DNA of 64,000 nucleotides from a virus, in IMG/VR virus record IMGVR_UViG_3300021964_000015; one strand, 5' to 3'. The translations under genes were made by a program, and so were the position numbers. Shown here piece by piece: positions 16,647-26,212 of the stretch (position 1 is its first letter; the number at the start of each line of letters is the position of its first letter). The notes under the pieces are model-generated. The model was not told the origin of the DNA and ran no database searches. It saw only the letters and a program-made list of their open reading frames with translations.

Positions 16647-18923
16647 ATGGCGGACGCTAGAGCCCGGCTTCAAGAAATTATCAATGCCTATCTGGATAAA
16701 GATAGCAACATTGTTGTTGATACGGGCATTGTTGCGTCCCACGTAGCACAAATGAAACTTTTTGGCATTCGCCAAGGAGTTGAATTCTTTGCAGGCCAGG
16801 ATAACTTTGGTGCCCAACGAAAGGACTTTATCGATCGCGTACTAAAGTACAACAAGCTTGATACCCGTTTGGATTCCATCTGGGAATACTTTTTATGTGA
16901 TGGAAAAGGTCTTTTTTACATTCGGCCAACCAAACAGAACTATCGGCTTTACTATTTTCGTGATCACGAATATCGTGCCTATTACAACGTTGATGGCGAA
17001 CTTGATGAGGTTGTAATCATCTATAGCTATAAGGTACGTAAAGGCAACGGTTTCGGCGAAGCAATTAATACGACGAGTATTTCAGGTACACAAAGTACTT
17101 ATAGCCCTGGAGCAAAACGCTATATTCGTTTATCCATTAAAGGAAGAGAAATTGAAGAAACTCATTCTGATGCAGAGTTAAATTTTGATATGCCCACTTA
17201 TGCCCTAACGGGCAATACAAAGAAGTTAAAAAATAGTCTTGGTTTTATTCCATGCGTTGAGATCATCAACAATGCCCAAGGCTTCTCCAATGAAGGGGTG
17301 GGTGAATTTGACCACATGGCAAATCACATCTGCACCCATGATGATTTAATGCGCACGATGCGCAAGAACATTACCTTCTTTGGTAATCCAACATTGCTTT
17401 CTTCTCGGCCTAAAACCGATTTGATGGAAGCAGGTGGTGATATGTCCGTTCAACGGCCCTCTATTGCTGCTAACTCAGGTTTCATGAGCCCTTCGCCCAT
17501 GAGCCGTTCCATGTTTAAAGCTGATCCAGTCAGCCGTGGCATGGATGGTCAGATCAGGGTTCCAAGAGTTATTGCAAACCTGGAACCAAACGATCGTGTT
17601 GGTTATATTGTTCCAGATGCTATTACAGGTGATCAAAACGCATTTGCCCGTCAGTATCGGGAAGAGATCCGTACCGCTCTTGGTGGCGTGGATGAGTTGT
17701 CAATTTCTGCAGGTGTTACTGCAACTGAATACAAATCATTGTTTGGCCGCGTTGCCGCCACATCAAAGAAGAAAGCAAACGCCATTTACACCCACGGTAT
17801 TTGTCGTTGTCTAGAACTTATTATTTATCAAGAAGAGCAACTGTTTAAAACAACACTTGCGGCTGCTGCTGGTATGGAGAAACCAGTTGAATTACCTGAT
17901 GATGCACCACCTGAACAACAGGCTGCATACGAAGATGCATTAAGTCAATATAACGAACAATTGAAGAAACTTATGTTAGCTTGTGTGGAAACTCAACAAA
18001 TACCACCAAGTGTTGTTGGGTTAATTCCTGATGGGGATCTAACTGTTTTATGGCGTTGGCTTGGTCCCGTCTATGAAGATTCCACGCAAGATATTCTTAA
18101 CAACTCTATTGTTGTAAGAAACCTTCAGGAATTAGGTGTTGATAGCATTGAAGCACTGAAGTACCTCTTCCCTTCTAAAACGGATGAGGAAAGAGCCGAG
18201 ATGCTATCTGGGTTCCCATTCAGGATGGTGAACGAATTGCAGGGTGCTTACTCTCAATTTGCTCGTCTAGTGGGGGGAATGATGCAGACTCCTCACCCGC
18301 AAGCACCGGATCTACCGATGGCTGCGGATCCCAGATTGGATCTAACACCATATCTGTATCGAACATTAGAAGCCTTACAAAAGGAGATGAGTTATGCAGG
18401 ACGCTACCGTCCAATCGATCCCACAGACGAGCCAAGTTCCGGCAGCGGTGGCTCCGAGCAGCTACGTGGCTCCGGCTCCGGCGCAAGCTCCAGTGGCAGC
18501 ACCAGTCCAGTATCAGGTGGGTACCAGTTACCCTCAGGCGGTACCACAGGCAGCCCCCAGCTACCAATCAGCCCCTACGCAGTACGCCCCCCAATCCCAA
18601 CCGGAAGCCCAGGGCAACCCATGGGAATCGGCGTTCAACAAGGTGGTGAATCTGCTGAGCGCACCAGTTCAATCCCCGTTCCAGGGTCAACCGTCTCAGA
18701 CGACGCAATACAGTCCAGCCAACTACGGCCAGCTGCCCAGCAACCTGGGTACGCAACAATCGGCTCCGCAGACCTCATTACCCAACCAGGCCTACTCGCC
18801 CAACTCTTCCCAAACTTCCTCGATTCAATCATTGGAGGACGTAGCGGATCTCCTGGATTGGAGCCCGGAAAGCCGGAACGTGGTAAGCGCGTACGGAACA
18901 GAAGCTCCCGCAATTCTAAATAA
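16647..18923 (+). CDS. portal protein with low-complexity overprinted C-terminal extension
   Basis: size and position between TerL and capsid; portal-like pattern (LGFIPCVEI...GEFD...ITFFGNPTL...EIRTALGG); AAGGAG RBS. Confidence 0.75.
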   Translation: MADARARLQEIINAYLDKDSNIVVDTGIVASHVAQMKLFGIRQGVEFFAGQDNFGAQRKDFIDRVLKYNKLDTRLDSIWEYFLCDGKGLFYIRPTKQNYRLYYFRDHEYRAYYNVDGELDEVVIIYSYKVRKGNGFGEAINTTSISGTQSTYSPGAKRYIRLSIKGREIEETHSDAELNFDMPTYALTGNTKKLKNSLGFIPCVEIINNAQGFSNEGVGEFDHMANHICTHDDLMRTMRKNITFFGNPTLLSSRPKTDLMEAGGDMSVQRPSIAANSGFMSPSPMSRSMFKADPVSRGMDGQIRVPRVIANLEPNDRVGYIVPDAITGDQNAFARQYREEIRTALGGVDELSISAGVTATEYKSLFGRVAATSKKKANAIYTHGICRCLELIIYQEEQLFKTTLAAAAGMEKPVELPDDAPPEQQAAYEDALSQYNEQLKKLMLACVETQQIPPSVVGLIPDGDLTVLWRWLGPVYEDSTQDILNNSIVVRNLQELGVDSIEALKYLFPSKTDEERAEMLSGFPFRMVNELQGAYSQFARLVGGMMQTPHPQAPDLPMAADPRLDLTPYLYRTLEALQKEMSYAGRYRPIDPTDEPSSGSGGSEQLRGSGSGASSSGSTSPVSGGYQLPSGGTTGSPQLPISPYAVRPPIPTGSPGQPMGIGVQQGGESAERTSSIPVPGSTVSDDAIQSSQLRPAAQQPGYATIGSADLITQPGLLAQLFPNFLDSIIGGRSGSPGLEPGKPERGKRVRNRSSRNSK

Positions 18924-19347
18924 TTATGCTCTCCAGCTGGAAGATATGCTGGATAGTGCTGTTGCCTGGGGTGGCAAAGCACAAGAACTGCTGAATGGCT
19001 ATGCCGAATTCAGTGTTAATGAGCACCAGGAGAACCTGGCATATAACGAGATCCTGACCAATCCCGATGTACTTAGCGATTACACGCTGAAGTTCTTTGG
19101 TCCTGAAGGTCCCTATCCTGTGTATGAGGATGAGGCACAATTGGAAACCCGTGGTTATCCAACCGCACCGATTGATTCTGCCCTGGGTCAATTCCCTGCT
19201 CCTCCTACTGCAGCAGCTCCTCAGCAACCTGAAAACTTCTGGGGCAGCTTTAAGCAACAAATGGATGTGGATCCCAGCCAGGCATGGCGTCTCCTGAATA
19301 ACGCTCAGCCTCAAGTGGTTTCCAACAAACTGTTTGTAATGGAGTGA
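18394..19347 (+). CDS. putative capsid scaffolding protein
   Basis: Q/P-rich N-terminus, acidic helical core, AAGGAG RBS upstream, lies between portal and capsid. Confidence 0.65.
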   Translation: MQDATVQSIPQTSQVPAAVAPSSYVAPAPAQAPVAAPVQYQVGTSYPQAVPQAAPSYQSAPTQYAPQSQPEAQGNPWESAFNKVVNLLSAPVQSPFQGQPSQTTQYSPANYGQLPSNLGTQQSAPQTSLPNQAYSPNSSQTSSIQSLEDVADLLDWSPESRNVVSAYGTEAPAILNNYALQLEDMLDSAVAWGGKAQELLNGYAEFSVNEHQENLAYNEILTNPDVLSDYTLKFFGPEGPYPVYEDEAQLETRGYPTAPIDSALGQFPAPPTAAAPQQPENFWGSFKQQMDVDPSQAWRLLNNAQPQVVSNKLFVME

Positions 19348-19351
19348 TGCC

Positions 19352-19807
19352 ATGATTCCCGCCCTTTTAGGTGGGCTGGGTGCATTAGGAGGTGGCGTAG
19401 GCGGCTTTAAGCTTGCTGGCCGCTACCTCCAGGATGTACCAGCTCAATTAACAAAAGCAGGTAAAAAAGGCACTCAAAAATTATCAGATGCACTGCTTAG
19501 TGGCGCAGCAGGATTAGATCGCTATGAAGGGCCAGGTGCTGTTGGTACTATGGCAGGAGATCTTCAGAATGTCTTGCTTAAAGGTGCAGATGCAGCTGCA
19601 AACATTCCTGTAGAGCAAATTGCTAAAGGAGCAACCAAAGTTGGTCAAGTCGGCTTAGGAGCCCTTGGTGGAATTGGTGCAGGTCAAGGCTTATATAGCA
19701 TTGGTAATGCATTAATGCCGCAACAACAAGCACTTGATCCTGAATCCTACGGGTCTAGCAACTCCCCTGGTGCACGCTATAAAGCACCTACTATGCAGTA
19801 TATGTAA
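19352..19807 (+). CDS. Gly/Ala-rich virion-associated protein
   Basis: 151 aa; C-terminal DPESYGSSNSPGARY. Confidence 0.7.
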   Translation: MIPALLGGLGALGGGVGGFKLAGRYLQDVPAQLTKAGKKGTQKLSDALLSGAAGLDRYEGPGAVGTMAGDLQNVLLKGADAAANIPVEQIAKGATKVGQVGLGALGGIGAGQGLYSIGNALMPQQQALDPESYGSSNSPGARYKAPTMQYM

Positions 19808-19840
19808 GCTTAAAGCTTATTACCTGCTAGAATTTGTTTT

Positions 19841-19865
19841 AGATAAGACACATGTGTCTTTATCT
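19841..19865 (+). promoter_or_regulatory. 5' leader hairpin after capsid promoter (TGnTAGAAT, -10 at 19828-19833)
   Basis: agataagacacatgtgtctttatct palindrome; GGAGG RBS at 19891. Confidence 0.55.
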
Positions 19866-19905
19866 TTCACCCGATAAAAACACTGACACTGGAGGATAAA
19901 CTAAA

Positions 19906-21895
19906 GTGTTCATTGATAGCTAGTTCAGATCCTGGTAGGTATGTCCCTTCAAGATTTGGTAAATAGCTCCGTGATTACAGTTAAATTTTTCAGCAATTTT
20001 TCTATAAGAAAGACCTGCTTCTTTTAAAGATTTAATTTGTTTCACGTCATCCGAAGAAAATTTTCTCAAAGATTTCTTCGGCTTTCCTTTACTGGCAAAA
20101 CCATTGTTTTTGTAACAACCGTTTTCCCAGGCTCTTGTTAAATTTTCTTGTTTGGTAACGATCTCAAGATTAGCAAGTTGATTATTTCTCTTGTTGTTAT
20201 CTTTGTGATCAATCTGTAGGGAAAAGTTACTGGTTCCATGAGAACGCAGATCTAATCCTAAAAAAGCAATTGCCATCAAGACGTGAAGATGAAATCTTTT
20301 TCTCTTTCCATCTACAAGAACTGAAATACGGTCGTAAACACTGGTGGAACTAATAGGAATCTCTAGAAAATATTCTTGATTATCGGGATCAAGTTGTTTT
20401 TCAAAAGCTTTCCCTTCTTCCGTTAAGTAAAGATTACCAAATCCTGGAACAAGTTTTGGATTCATGTTGTTTATAAACAGGTTTCCAGACTGTAGCACGC
20501 CTCAACTGAACGCTCAACGTTGTCACCTCACCAAGCAATTGATGAGTGCAAACCGGATGAATTCAGGGAAGCCCTAACGTAAAGACGAGGGTAATCCTGA
20601 GCCAAGCCAATCAAGAACGTGATTGGAAGGTGCAGAGACTACTGGGGGTAACACGATCTTGTTACGTAATACCAGATTCAGCGTCCGGCATCCCACAGGG
20701 ATGAAGAGATAGTCCACCCCTCTAAGAAACTAGAGACCAGGAGAACGATTTTCCAAAGATTTTAGGTGCGGAACTTTATCGTCCTCACCCTGCTTATGTC
20801 ACCGAAATGGCTGTGGAGCCCGTGGTTGTCCACGACTTCACTCGTCAGCCCGGTCAAACTGTTCAGTTAGATCGCTATAAGTTCTGGGGTACCCCTGGTA
20901 CGAAGGATAGCCGCGAGCGTATCTCTGACCAGACCATTGGTACTGCCAACAGCCGCAACATCACCAAGGAAAAGGTGCTTGTTGTGCTGAAAGAATACAC
21001 CGGCCCTGCTGATCCGGGTGATCCCACTCAGCCCAGCACCTTCAAAATTGCTCGTGAAACCCTGATTACCGCCCAGCGTCTGCTGCTGGATACCGGTAAC
21101 CTGAACATGTTCCACCAGAGCATTGGTTCGCTGACCCTGCTCGATGATTATCGCCGGTGGCGTGATCGTGTGTTCATTGATGAACTTGCCAAAGCAGAAG
21201 CAAACGGTGCTGCCTCCACCACACAAGGCGGTTACTACTTCGCTGGTGCCAAGGAAAAGAATGCTTCCGGTCAAATCACCTATAGCGTTGCTGAGTACCA
21301 AAGCCAAACTCAGCAGTTCCAGGTGCGTACTGACCTTCTGACCGTTGTTAAGGATCTGCGTAAGCGTAACGTTCCTACCTTCGCTGATGGTCTGTATCGT
21401 TGCATTTGCGATCCCGTCTTCATGATGCATCTGCGTCGTGATCCTGACTTCCGTGAGATCGCTCGTTACGCTGGTACCCCTGGCCAAGGCATGTACATGG
21501 GTAATCCCATGATGCCTAACAACGCCAGCTTCTACATGGGTCCCCAGGCTGGTCAAGGTTACTTCCTTGCCGGTGAGCCGGTGATGCCTACTGGTGTTCA
21601 GTTTGAAGGTGTGAAGTTCTTCGAATCGACCAACTTCCCCATCAAGAACGTCAACGCTTCGTTCGATGCTGGTTCCACCTACACTTCCCAGGAAGTTGCC
21701 CAAGGTTACTTCTTTGGTCCTCAGTCGATTGGTGTTGGTATCGGCGGCCCGAACGCTCAGGTGCTCATCAACAACAACGACGACTTCAGCCGCTTCATCA
21801 TCCTGATCTGGCAACTGTATGCTGGTTTTGAAATCCTGAACAAGGACTTCGTTACCACCGCGTTCAGCTTCATCCAAGACGATGGTACCGTCTGA
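19906..21895 (+). CDS. major capsid protein, spliced: exon 1 19906-19917, exon 2 20744-21895
   Basis: GGAGG then GTG TTC ATT GAT joins in frame to AAC GAT TTT..., giving MFIDNDFPKILGAELYRPHPAYVTEMAVEP...; strongest high-expression codon bias in the window; follows portal and scaffold. Confidence 0.88.
19920..20465 (-). mobile_element. intron-encoded HNH homing endonuclease (antisense)
   Basis: HLHVLMA...IDHKDNNKRNNQLANLE HNH motif plus C-terminal HTH; probable start MNPKL at 20465. Confidence 0.9.
20489..20517 (-). promoter_or_regulatory. sigma70-like promoter for the intron HNH
   Basis: TTGAGC-N17-TACAGT with extended TG. Confidence 0.6.
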
Positions 21896-21932
21896 TAATT
21901 AATCCATACATTTAAATTACTGGAAAAGATAA

Positions 21933-22727
21933 ATGACCTATTTGTCCGCTAAGAAAATCTACCCAGGTAACTGGGCAGAGCCCCTCAACGGTTGGTACAA
22001 GAACATTGATACCAACGATGACGGCAGCAACAATAACTCCAAGGGTGGCCCCACTTGCGTGCTGGCAACTCCTGGCTACCGTTACTTCCAGCAGCGTGGT
22101 TACGTTCCTGTCACCAACACTTCTGGTGGCGGTGCTATCTCCTCCGGCAGTGTTATCGTTCCTTCCCCTTATCGGAATGACGATACCCGCACTGACATCA
22201 CCGGTATGGTGATCTCCGGCAGCAGCACCCTTCCTGCCTATGTGTATCGCGCAACTGTTTCCGTTGCTTCTGGCTGGGGTGATGGCCGTGTTGCTTCTGG
22301 TGTGTATGCCGCAACCGGTAACATCATTACCTTCGGTCCTGGCCTGGAATCCAACGCAGGTGTTGGCGCAGCTGTTTCCCAAGCAAACCTGCAGTCCACC
22401 ACCTCTGGCAGCCAGCCCGGTGAGATTTATTTCGCTGGTGGTTCCGCTGCTTACAGCGCTGTTCCTCTCCTGACTGCTACCGGTGCTGCTGGTAATAGCG
22501 CAGGTAAGGTTTACCGCGAAGTGACTGCCGCTACTACTTACAACGTTCAGTCCCGTACTACCCTGACCGGCACCACTGCAGGCGGCGGTTGGTACATCTC
22601 CAGCGCTGATTCCACTGCTGGTCGCACTGGTTATCTGATCGTTGAAGTGTGCTACATCCAACCTGATGTTGCTCCTGGTTACGAAGACATCGACGGCTAC
22701 CTGCTTGGCCGTGTTGTCTCCCCGTAA
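21933..22727 (+). CDS. abundant structural protein (minor capsid/decoration or tail component)
   Basis: immediately after the capsid gene with the same codon bias; G/S/T-rich beta composition. Confidence 0.75.
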   Translation: MTYLSAKKIYPGNWAEPLNGWYKNIDTNDDGSNNNSKGGPTCVLATPGYRYFQQRGYVPVTNTSGGGAISSGSVIVPSPYRNDDTRTDITGMVISGSSTLPAYVYRATVSVASGWGDGRVASGVYAATGNIITFGPGLESNAGVGAAVSQANLQSTTSGSQPGEIYFAGGSAAYSAVPLLTATGAAGNSAGKVYREVTAATTYNVQSRTTLTGTTAGGGWYISSADSTAGRTGYLIVEVCYIQPDVAPGYEDIDGYLLGRVVSP

Positions 22728-25621: not shown

Positions 25622-26212
25622 TTATTTGGGTTTTACGTGGCTACCTCCTTTGCCATCATGCCGTTCTTTTGAAAATGCTTTGTCAAGGGGCCATTCATTA
25701 TTAAGGCGTTTTTGCATTGATTGAGGAGATATTCCAACTTCTTTAGCCCAGTCGGCAATGCACATTGTCTTACCTTCAAAGGTATAAAGTCTAGTAGCAC
25801 GCTTCCCTCCTCGGTTGCGTGTCTGCTCTTTTCTTGTAGCCCATCGACAATTTTCTTTGCAGTAGTTTTTATCGTTTTCAATACGCTCTAGTTCCATCTT
25901 GGGATCTGGTTTTTTACCCATGTCTGCTAGGAACACCGTAAAGTCTTCCCAAGAAGGGTCGTAGGTTATACCACGGGCGCCATAACGTTCATAATGGGTT
26001 GTGCCAATACAATTGCAACGGTTTTTCATTGCGCACCATGAACCGTATTCTGGTGTTTTATCTCTGTTCCCACCATGTTTGAAGGAAGCGCAGTTTTTTG
26101 AGCAATAGACATACCCTCTATCTCGCAAACGCTTACGATGCCAAGCTGCGGTATTCCCTTGGCGCTCATAAAACTTGCCACAGCAAGCGCACTGAAAAAT
26201 TGTTTGTGCCAT
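25622..26212 (-). mobile_element. free-standing HNH-type homing endonuclease
   Basis: YGSWCAMKNRC...YGARGI...FLADMG...LERIENDKNYCKENCRWAT, with N-terminal Zn-finger CxxC...YCSKNC. Confidence 0.88.

Follow-up and report, generated by a model that had tools for sequence, protein, structure and literature searches.

The 64,000-nt stretch of viral DNA analysed here (IMG/VR record IMGVR_UViG_3300021964_000015, hereafter the window) carries an 826-nt insert in its major capsid gene, which we interpret, with a probability of about 0.92, as a self-splicing, mobile group I intron that would spread among S-EIV1-like freshwater cyanophages by endonuclease-driven homing. The insert lies on the plus strand at 19918–20743, between codon 4 (GAT) and codon 5 (AAC) and only 12 nt past the start codon; it ends in a terminal guanosine (omega-G, 20743) and is delimited both by a match to the Rfam group I intron family RF00028 and by its exact absence from relatives. 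A homing endonuclease gene (HEG) lies within it in antisense orientation. The boundaries of the intron, its fold with covariation, the selection on the HEG, the coding constraint on the leader of the second exon and the patchy distribution among related phages are each supported directly.

Splice boundaries and the N-terminus of the capsid protein

The capsid gene begins with a Shine-Dalgarno sequence, GGAGGA (19891–19896, plus strand, read from the sequence), which is kept in both intronless and intron-bearing relatives. It is followed by exon 1 (19906–19917, plus strand), GTG TTC ATT GAT, encoding MFID, the last U of which is the 5′ splice site. Exon 2 (20744–21895, plus strand) opens with AAC GAT TTT CCA AAG and supplies codons 5–387 and the stop. 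Directly 3′ of exon 1, the sequence AGC TAG places an in-frame stop at codon 6, such that the TAG at 19921–19923 halts translation of unspliced RNA after MFIDS. This TAG belongs to a CTAG palindrome (19920–19923) that reads as a stop codon on both strands, the complement of CTA at 19920–19922 being the stop of the antisense HNH gene. The exon-2 frame is open only from 20726 and contains no ATG, GTG or TTG ahead of the in-frame ATG at 20807, where the open reading frame (ORF) list starts a 362-aa ORF; this ATG has no Shine-Dalgarno sequence ahead of it. The listed ORF is short by 4 + 21 = 25 N-terminal residues of the capsid protein. An earlier reading of the window from its letters alone (the sequence-only reading) had proposed a capsid gene cut after a four-codon exon, a TAG met at codon 6 of unspliced RNA, and 25 residues overlooked by the ORF track; the latter two can be read or counted directly, and the first holds in coordinates and sequence and has strong comparative evidence behind it.

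This comparison draws on 80 relatives at 90–100% identity, found by scanning IMG/VR with the capsid protein, together with Synechococcus phage S-EIV1 (KJ410740), giving 81 alleles. The intron is missing from 57 of them (56 IMG/VR relatives and S-EIV1), in which GTGTTCATTGAT is joined straight to AACGAT. The intronless alleles read GGAGGATAA...GTG TTC ATT GAT AAC GAT TTT CCA AAG, a contiguous frame for MFIDNDFPK, and across them GTG TTC ATT GAT runs directly into A(A/C)(C/T) GAY TTY. One such relative (L004), with a capsid protein 99% identical to that of the window and the same upstream sequence, lacks exactly 19918–20743. The nearest phage record, S-EIV1 (82% nucleotide identity), aligns on both sides of the insert and not within it, and possesses an uninterrupted GTG-initiated 383-aa ORF (L001, 2593–3744) beginning MFIDTDFPKILGAELYRPHPAY... 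In the protein database, nearly all forms are 387 aa long and start with MFIDNDFPK; the sequence-only reading had predicted this start for intronless homologs, and it occurs in intronless alleles and database proteins alike. A few database forms of 362 or 377 aa begin at or just ahead of MAVEP, and look like gene-caller truncations (e.g. P0052, whose longest contig has the same length, 23,078, as the intron-bearing L018). Full-length homologs at 28–53% identity all begin 1–3 residues from MFID, and none of them starts at the MAVEP position, the start that the same reading had named as counting against an intron. The distant homologs share an F-P-x-L-L-G...L-x-R-P-x-P-x-Y segment, with L15 invariant and Y22 nearly so. 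We also observed that the capsid gene is unannotated in the GenBank record of S-EIV1 (L001, KJ410740.1, 2518–3744), where a 762-nt minus-strand coding sequence and a 471-nt plus-strand coding sequence, both labelled 'hypothetical protein', appear instead.

The exon-2 leader of the intron-bearing alleles is also under coding constraint. Among 24 such alleles, a comparison of 20 of the codons lying between the 3′ splice site and ATG 20807 shows that 15 vary synonymously only, and two show a conservative residue change. The leader is therefore translated, though it is startless unless joined to exon 1. In addition, exon 1 and its ribosome-binding site are kept in all 18 complete intron-bearing copies. 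These observations weigh against a different account of the insert, in which the intron no longer splices or needs to, the capsid protein starts 25 residues short at ATG 20807 (MAVEP), and what remains is an HEG cassette with a ribozyme relic. Such an account is attractive insofar as ATG 20807 is the first common in-frame start codon and the one chosen by gene callers (P0058), but it leaves unexplained the constraint on the leader codons, the retention of exon 1, and an N-terminal segment that is conserved down to 28% identity and modelled as the N-terminal helix of the capsid fold. It must also contend with a start codon devoid of a Shine-Dalgarno sequence and with a ribozyme whose conservation greatly exceeds that of neutral sites and in which compensatory changes occur, and we consider it very improbable. 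Conversely, the view that the full-length capsid protein would need a spliced mRNA is strongly supported by this pattern of conservation.

The identity of the interrupted gene was settled by PHROGs and a fold search, because Pfam was silent on the capsid protein (zero matches, even at E 1). PHROGs assigned it to phrog_1357, major head protein (E 2.6e-16). An AlphaFold2 model built from an alignment of 21 homologs (pLDDT 78.6, pTM 0.79) has as its top Foldseek matches in the PDB the HK97-fold capsids of cyanophages P-SCSP1u (E 2.5e-12) and Pan3 (7e-12), both with probability 1.00, and the list consists almost entirely of phage capsid proteins, plus two encapsulins and a gene transfer agent capsid. 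Residues 2–14, which span the splice junction, are modelled as the N-terminal helix of the HK97 fold. The interrupted gene thus encodes the HK97-fold major capsid protein of an S-EIV1-like freshwater cyanophage. A 758-aa ORF upstream has matches to a virion structural protein family and weaker ones to portal proteins. As a separate observation on this neighbourhood, the portal-like ORF (16647–18923) overlaps the next ORF (18394–19347) in a different frame by 530 nt (18394–18923), whereas the annotated neighbours in S-EIV1 do not overlap.

Ribozyme fold and guide sequence

The RF00028 match covers 20465–20736 and the whole of the model (1–253 of 253), at 91.2 bits, where the gathering score is 50 (E 4.4e-22); a search with this model had been among the checks suggested by the sequence-only reading. 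No other Rfam family was matched in the window. An allele without the endonuclease ORF (L007, 1824–2099, 276 nt) scores almost equally, at 90.5 bits. The ribozyme core occupies 20527–20735 on the plus strand (coordinates mapped from alignment A1, comprising 15 intron alleles) and contains P2 (20527–20546, with a GCAA loop), P3 (20553–20559/20682–20688), P4 (20563–20568/20595–20600), P5 (20571–20592), P6 (20601–20633), P7 (20637–20641/20710–20714), P8 (20689–20703) and P9 (20720–20735, with a GAAA-type loop). An extra P7.1-like hairpin at 20642–20675, supported by four compensatory pairs, lies between P7 and P3′. Introns of subgroup IA, typified by T4 td and the Twort-like phage introns, have extra helices P7.1/P7.2 between P7 and P3′, and the single hairpin observed here may point to an IA-type layout by that general definition. 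RNAalifold recovered P2, P3, P4, P5, P6, the extra hairpin, P8 and P9, and found P10 unprompted; P7 was added as a pseudoknot before pairs were counted.

The internal guide sequence lies at 20518–20525 (plus strand) and is invariant in the 15 aligned introns; its first half, CGUU, contributes to P10 and its second half, GUCA, to P1. The 5′ strand of P1 (19914–19920, plus strand) consists of exon-1 UGAU and intron AGC and pairs with GUUGUCA at 20519–20525, including the U19917·G20522 wobble, whereas CGUU pairs with exon-2 AACG to form P10. The features characteristic of a group I intron are all present, namely the final U of the 5′ exon paired to G in P1, an intron-terminal G, and a guide pairing with the 3′ exon. 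P1 is prolonged by an extension in which GUUCAG (19923–19928, plus strand) pairs with CUGAAC (20506–20511), with the HEG in its loop. The full-length introns that were examined retain both strands of this extension, as do the ORF-less ones, and CTGAAC is invariant in alignment A1. The sequence-only reading had recognized the guide cgttgtca with its pairing to both exons and the U-G wobble, as well as P2, P3, P7 with an extra stem, P8, P9 and the terminal G, and its anatomy of the ribozyme is confirmed helix by helix.

Conservation within the alignment indicates selection on the RNA itself. Over the last 250 nt of the intron the 15 alleles show a mean column identity of 95%, compared to a synonymous divergence of ~36% in the HEG of the same alleles, and the RNA is therefore strongly constrained. 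Among 68 pairs, 99.1% of cells form standard pairs, and ten pairs show changes on both sides, in comparison to 2.5 ± 1.1 in shuffles (none of 500 reached the observed value) and 0–2 when partners were slid. These compensatory changes fall in P2, P6, the extra hairpin and P8; P3, P4, P7 and P9 barely vary and are thus uninformative on covariation. The exon side of the pairing also differs between allele classes: the P1 and P10 exon bases, TGAT and AACG, occur in 18 of 18 complete intron-bearing alleles and in 39 of 57 intronless ones, the remainder having AATG, ACCG, CGAT or AGAC. A different ORF-less group I intron of ~350 nt, with an enlarged P5 region and a compact P1, was seen at the same codon-4/5 site of a more divergent, ATG-initiated capsid gene (L111; IMGVR_UViG_3300025671_008479, minus strand, ~2470–2830 of the reverse complement). 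Here, exon CGAT is accompanied by guide GTCG, an exon–guide compensatory change in P1.

The anatomy suggests how the intron may be removed. The pre-mRNA would carry the ribosome-binding site and, beginning with the GTG start, four codons before the intron is reached, and P1 would form when exon-1 UGAU and intron AGC meet the guide ~600 nt downstream. Exogenous guanosine could then attack after U19917, upon which P10, formed by exon-2 AACG with guide CGUU, would align the 3′ exon and omega-G20743 would be released. Joining of GAU to AAC (...ATTGAT to AACGATTTT) would yield the 387-residue HK97-fold capsid protein starting MFIDNDFPK, and ribosomes that engage unspliced RNA would stop at the TAG after five codons. 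This chemistry, like the activity and target of the endonuclease and the promoter proposed for its gene, is inferred.

The antisense endonuclease gene and the distribution of the intron

Between the 5′ splice site and the guide, a minus-strand ORF of 181 codons plus stop (19920–20465) takes up the 580 nt, with a conserved start ATG at 20465 and its stop at 19920. It sits in the loop of the P1 extension, and its final codons are formed by the complement of this helix. The sequence-only reading described the intron itself correctly and left this antisense HNH gene, which accounts for ~550 nt of the intron, unmentioned. The encoded protein combines an HNH domain with a C-terminal helix-turn-helix: in Pfam, HNH_3 scores 35.3 bits (cut-off 24.8), and the match to HTH_38 at the C-terminus, with 24.0 bits, is just under the cut-off of 27. 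PHROGs gives phrog_59 (3e-26). In addition, the protein matches I-HmuI of phage SPO1 (1U3E, E 1e-6) over both the HNH motif and the C-terminal helix-turn-helix; its DHKDNNKRNN...N aligns with DHKDGNKDNN...N of I-HmuI (motif DHKDxNKxNN), such that the catalytic His and Asn of an HNH enzyme are in place. I-HmuI is a nicking enzyme that drives homing, and is encoded on the sense strand. The nearest phage HNH relatives of the window protein are at about 30% identity or less. All 17 full-length alleles examined retain an unbroken ORF of 543 nt, with a mean pN of 0.058 and pS of 0.364 (pN/pS 0.16), and judging from this substitution pattern the HEG is a working gene under purifying selection. Its likely role is homing: the I-HmuI-like enzyme would nick or cut intronless capsid alleles during co-infection, and repair would copy the intron in.

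The HEG probably has an extended –10 promoter of its own. The candidate (20489–20517, minus strand) comprises a –35 element TTGAGC at 20517–20512, a 17-nt spacer and TGc TACAGT at 20497–20489, and was singled out by comparison of alleles because what is conserved matches the expectation for a working extended –10 promoter. Specifically, 55 of 67 HEG-bearing alleles retain TTGAGY-17 nt-TAnnnT, and 53 of these also have the extended TGn, with the inner three bases occurring in 11 variants. A caveat is that the –35 element falls inside conserved ribozyme sequence. A terminator-like hairpin at 19854–19883 was considered as part of the element and rejected, being a conserved intergenic hairpin also present in intronless S-EIV1. 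Elsewhere in the window, the minus strand at 25622–26212 encodes a second, unrelated endonuclease-like ORF of 196 aa with a Cys-rich N-terminus, located in the virion gene region with plus-strand ORFs to either side; no group I intron surrounds it, because Rfam found only one intron in the window.

The intron is not confined to the window. A 19-nt core probe, for which an exact match was required and which would miss diverged copies elsewhere, located it, in various allelic forms, on at least 119 IMG/VR contigs, and every placeable copy found by this probe lies at the same capsid site, with none at other sites. The recurrence of the same intron at the same site on so many contigs refutes the idea that the insert is an assembly artefact or a chimera of one metagenome contig, to which we attach a negligible probability. 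Among the matches listed, 93 introns are complete, of which 79 (821–827 nt) contain the HEG and 14 (271–281 nt) are ORF-less; empty site, ORF-less intron and HEG-bearing intron thus coexist in IMG/VR. In most ORF-less introns, a short hairpin with covarying strands closes the P1 extension (AAACAAA/TTTGTTT, AAGCAAT/ATTGCTT or AGGCAA/TTGCCT). One 281-nt ORF-less intron (L137) keeps both ends of the HEG-bearing form (GGTAGGTGTGTCC... and ...AACATGCCTCAACTGAAC), and appears to be a recent, clean deletion of the HEG, the other 13 ORF-less copies having a structured cap hairpin instead.

A maximum-likelihood tree of the 81 capsid exon-2 sequences requires at least 15 changes in intron presence, 11 of which are forced by well-supported branches, compared to a mean of 20.7 when presence was shuffled. 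Within the window's own clade of six rows, whose capsid divergence is at most a few percent, four have the intron and two lack it. The divergence of the intron tracks that of the capsid gene only loosely (Spearman 0.52): the window differs from L005 by 3.5% in capsid and 7.9% in intron, and from L057 by 17.7% in capsid and 7.6% in intron. This patchy distribution would fit a classical homing cycle of invasion, HEG loss, intron loss, and exchange among co-infecting phages.

The position of the intron also invites the proposal that it has been co-opted as a regulator of this late gene, with splicing, translation initiation and antisense transcription acting as a three-way switch on the timing or amount of capsid protein. 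P1 uses nucleotides +9 to +15 of the coding sequence, and the 5′ splice site, 12 nt from the start codon, lies inside the ribosome footprint, such that an initiating ribosome and P1 cannot share the RNA. Furthermore, the conserved promoter-like element would drive transcription toward the splice site and the ribosome-binding site, and the antisense RNA could mask both. If true, the intron would be a regulatory device and not a neutral passenger. However, it is missing from 57 of the 81 alleles, including genomes with 99% identical capsid genes, and ORF-less introns, which have no antisense gene, persist as well. The element is therefore dispensable, as fits a selfish homing cycle, and regulation of this kind seems unlikely. 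For the same reason the 'checkpoint' that the sequence-only reading had ascribed to splicing finds no support in the distribution.

The preferred reading, a self-splicing intron mobilized by its endonuclease, has to be weighed against several points. The alleles are at least 90% alike, so part of the covariation and of the site association is not phylogenetically independent, and exchange between alleles by recombination could alone account for the scatter of the intron on the capsid tree. P1 pairs just four exon bases, as does P10, and P1 closes over a 580-nt loop. Lastly, a generic promoter and terminator scan of 19300–22000 called nothing upstream of the HEG, with promoter counts no higher than in shuffled sequence.

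Several implications follow from the element and its distribution. For annotation, gene callers cut the capsid protein to 362 or 377 residues on apparently intron-bearing contigs of a widespread freshwater cyanophage lineage. For population biology, a single site in one abundant uncultured lineage, represented by at least 119 contigs, offers naturally occurring material for the study of the homing cycle, of co-conversion and of how genes flow among co-infecting cyanophages. The intron also lies extremely close to the 5′ end, with an exon of just 12 nt before it, and the late gene that it interrupts is the most highly expressed one.

Comparison with known introns

The open-access literature searched yielded no intron described for an S-EIV1-like phage or for a structural gene of any cyanophage, and within that literature the present case seems to be the first intron of a cyanophage structural gene. 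The reviews and databases of bacterial group I introns that were examined mention neither capsid genes nor antisense endonuclease genes. The DNA polymerase intron of Bacillus phages SPO1 and SP82 resembles that of the window as a phage group I intron encoding an HNH endonuclease, and differs in its host gene and in the low identity of the endonuclease protein.

As a kind of element the window intron is not new, splicing of a capsid intron with an antisense HEG having been known since the description of mycobacteriophage LittleE in 2013 (PMC3706429). The sequence-only reading, in placing phage introns mostly outside structural genes, overlooked this case, lactococcal phage Tuc2009 (PMC3706429) and the crAss-like phages (PMC7886860). 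In LittleE, an 819-bp intron interrupts the major capsid gene, and its splicing was established by reverse-transcription PCR and N-terminal protein sequencing (Pope et al. 2013, PMC3706429). The two elements are alike in being capsid introns of ~0.8 kb, with an exon 1 ending in U, an intron ending in G, an HEG on the bottom strand, and close intronless relatives (PMC3706429). They differ in that LittleE is an actinobacteriophage and a siphovirus, and its intron is only tentatively called group I there; its ORF is described as LAGLIDADG-like in the text and as HNH in a figure legend (PMC3706429). The LittleE insertion lies close to the N-terminal processing site (PMC3706429), and the window intron 12 nt past the start codon. 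The same source cites a group I intron in the capsid gene of Tuc2009 (PMC3706429), and the Delta and Zeta groups of crAss-like phages also have group I introns in the capsid gene, with several possible per gene (PMC7886860). These last two belong to other phage lineages than the window.

Among cyanophages, group I introns occur in psbA (S-PM2 and S-CBWM1) and in the Pf-WMP3 DNA polymerase gene, whose IA2 intron is accompanied by the HNH nicking enzyme I-PfoP3I (PMC3428280). These resemble the window intron in being cyanophage group I introns, in Pf-WMP3 also with an HNH enzyme, whereas they reside in photosynthesis or replication genes and have sense-strand or free-standing endonuclease genes. 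At the sequence level, the S-CBWM1 psbA intron is 72% identical to the window intron over 116 nt of the core.

For the P4–P6 sequence, the sequence-only reading had proposed a possible likeness to the cyanobacterial tRNA-Leu intron, a member of the IC3 type. The closest ribozymes by sequence in the phage collection are other phage introns, and the closest examined was found in Klebsiella jumbo phages (Alcyoneusvirus, e.g. phiKp_21), at ~77% identity over 184–201 nt. In phiKp_21 (L083, LC768485.1, 1400–1790) it is an unannotated group I intron within a tRNA cluster, scoring 103.7 bits against RF00028. Its flanks, read by eye, are the two halves of a tRNA with a CAU anticodon, GGCCCCT...CTCAT before the intron and AATCGTT...AGGGGCCACCA after it; ARAGORN, run with its intron search, did not call this split tRNA. 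The Klebsiella intron is located in a tRNA anticodon loop, carries no endonuclease gene and has a different P1 and P2, yet it has in common with the window intron the extra hairpin that separates P7 from P3′, including its ACGAUCUUG loop, and the GUAAUAC tail.

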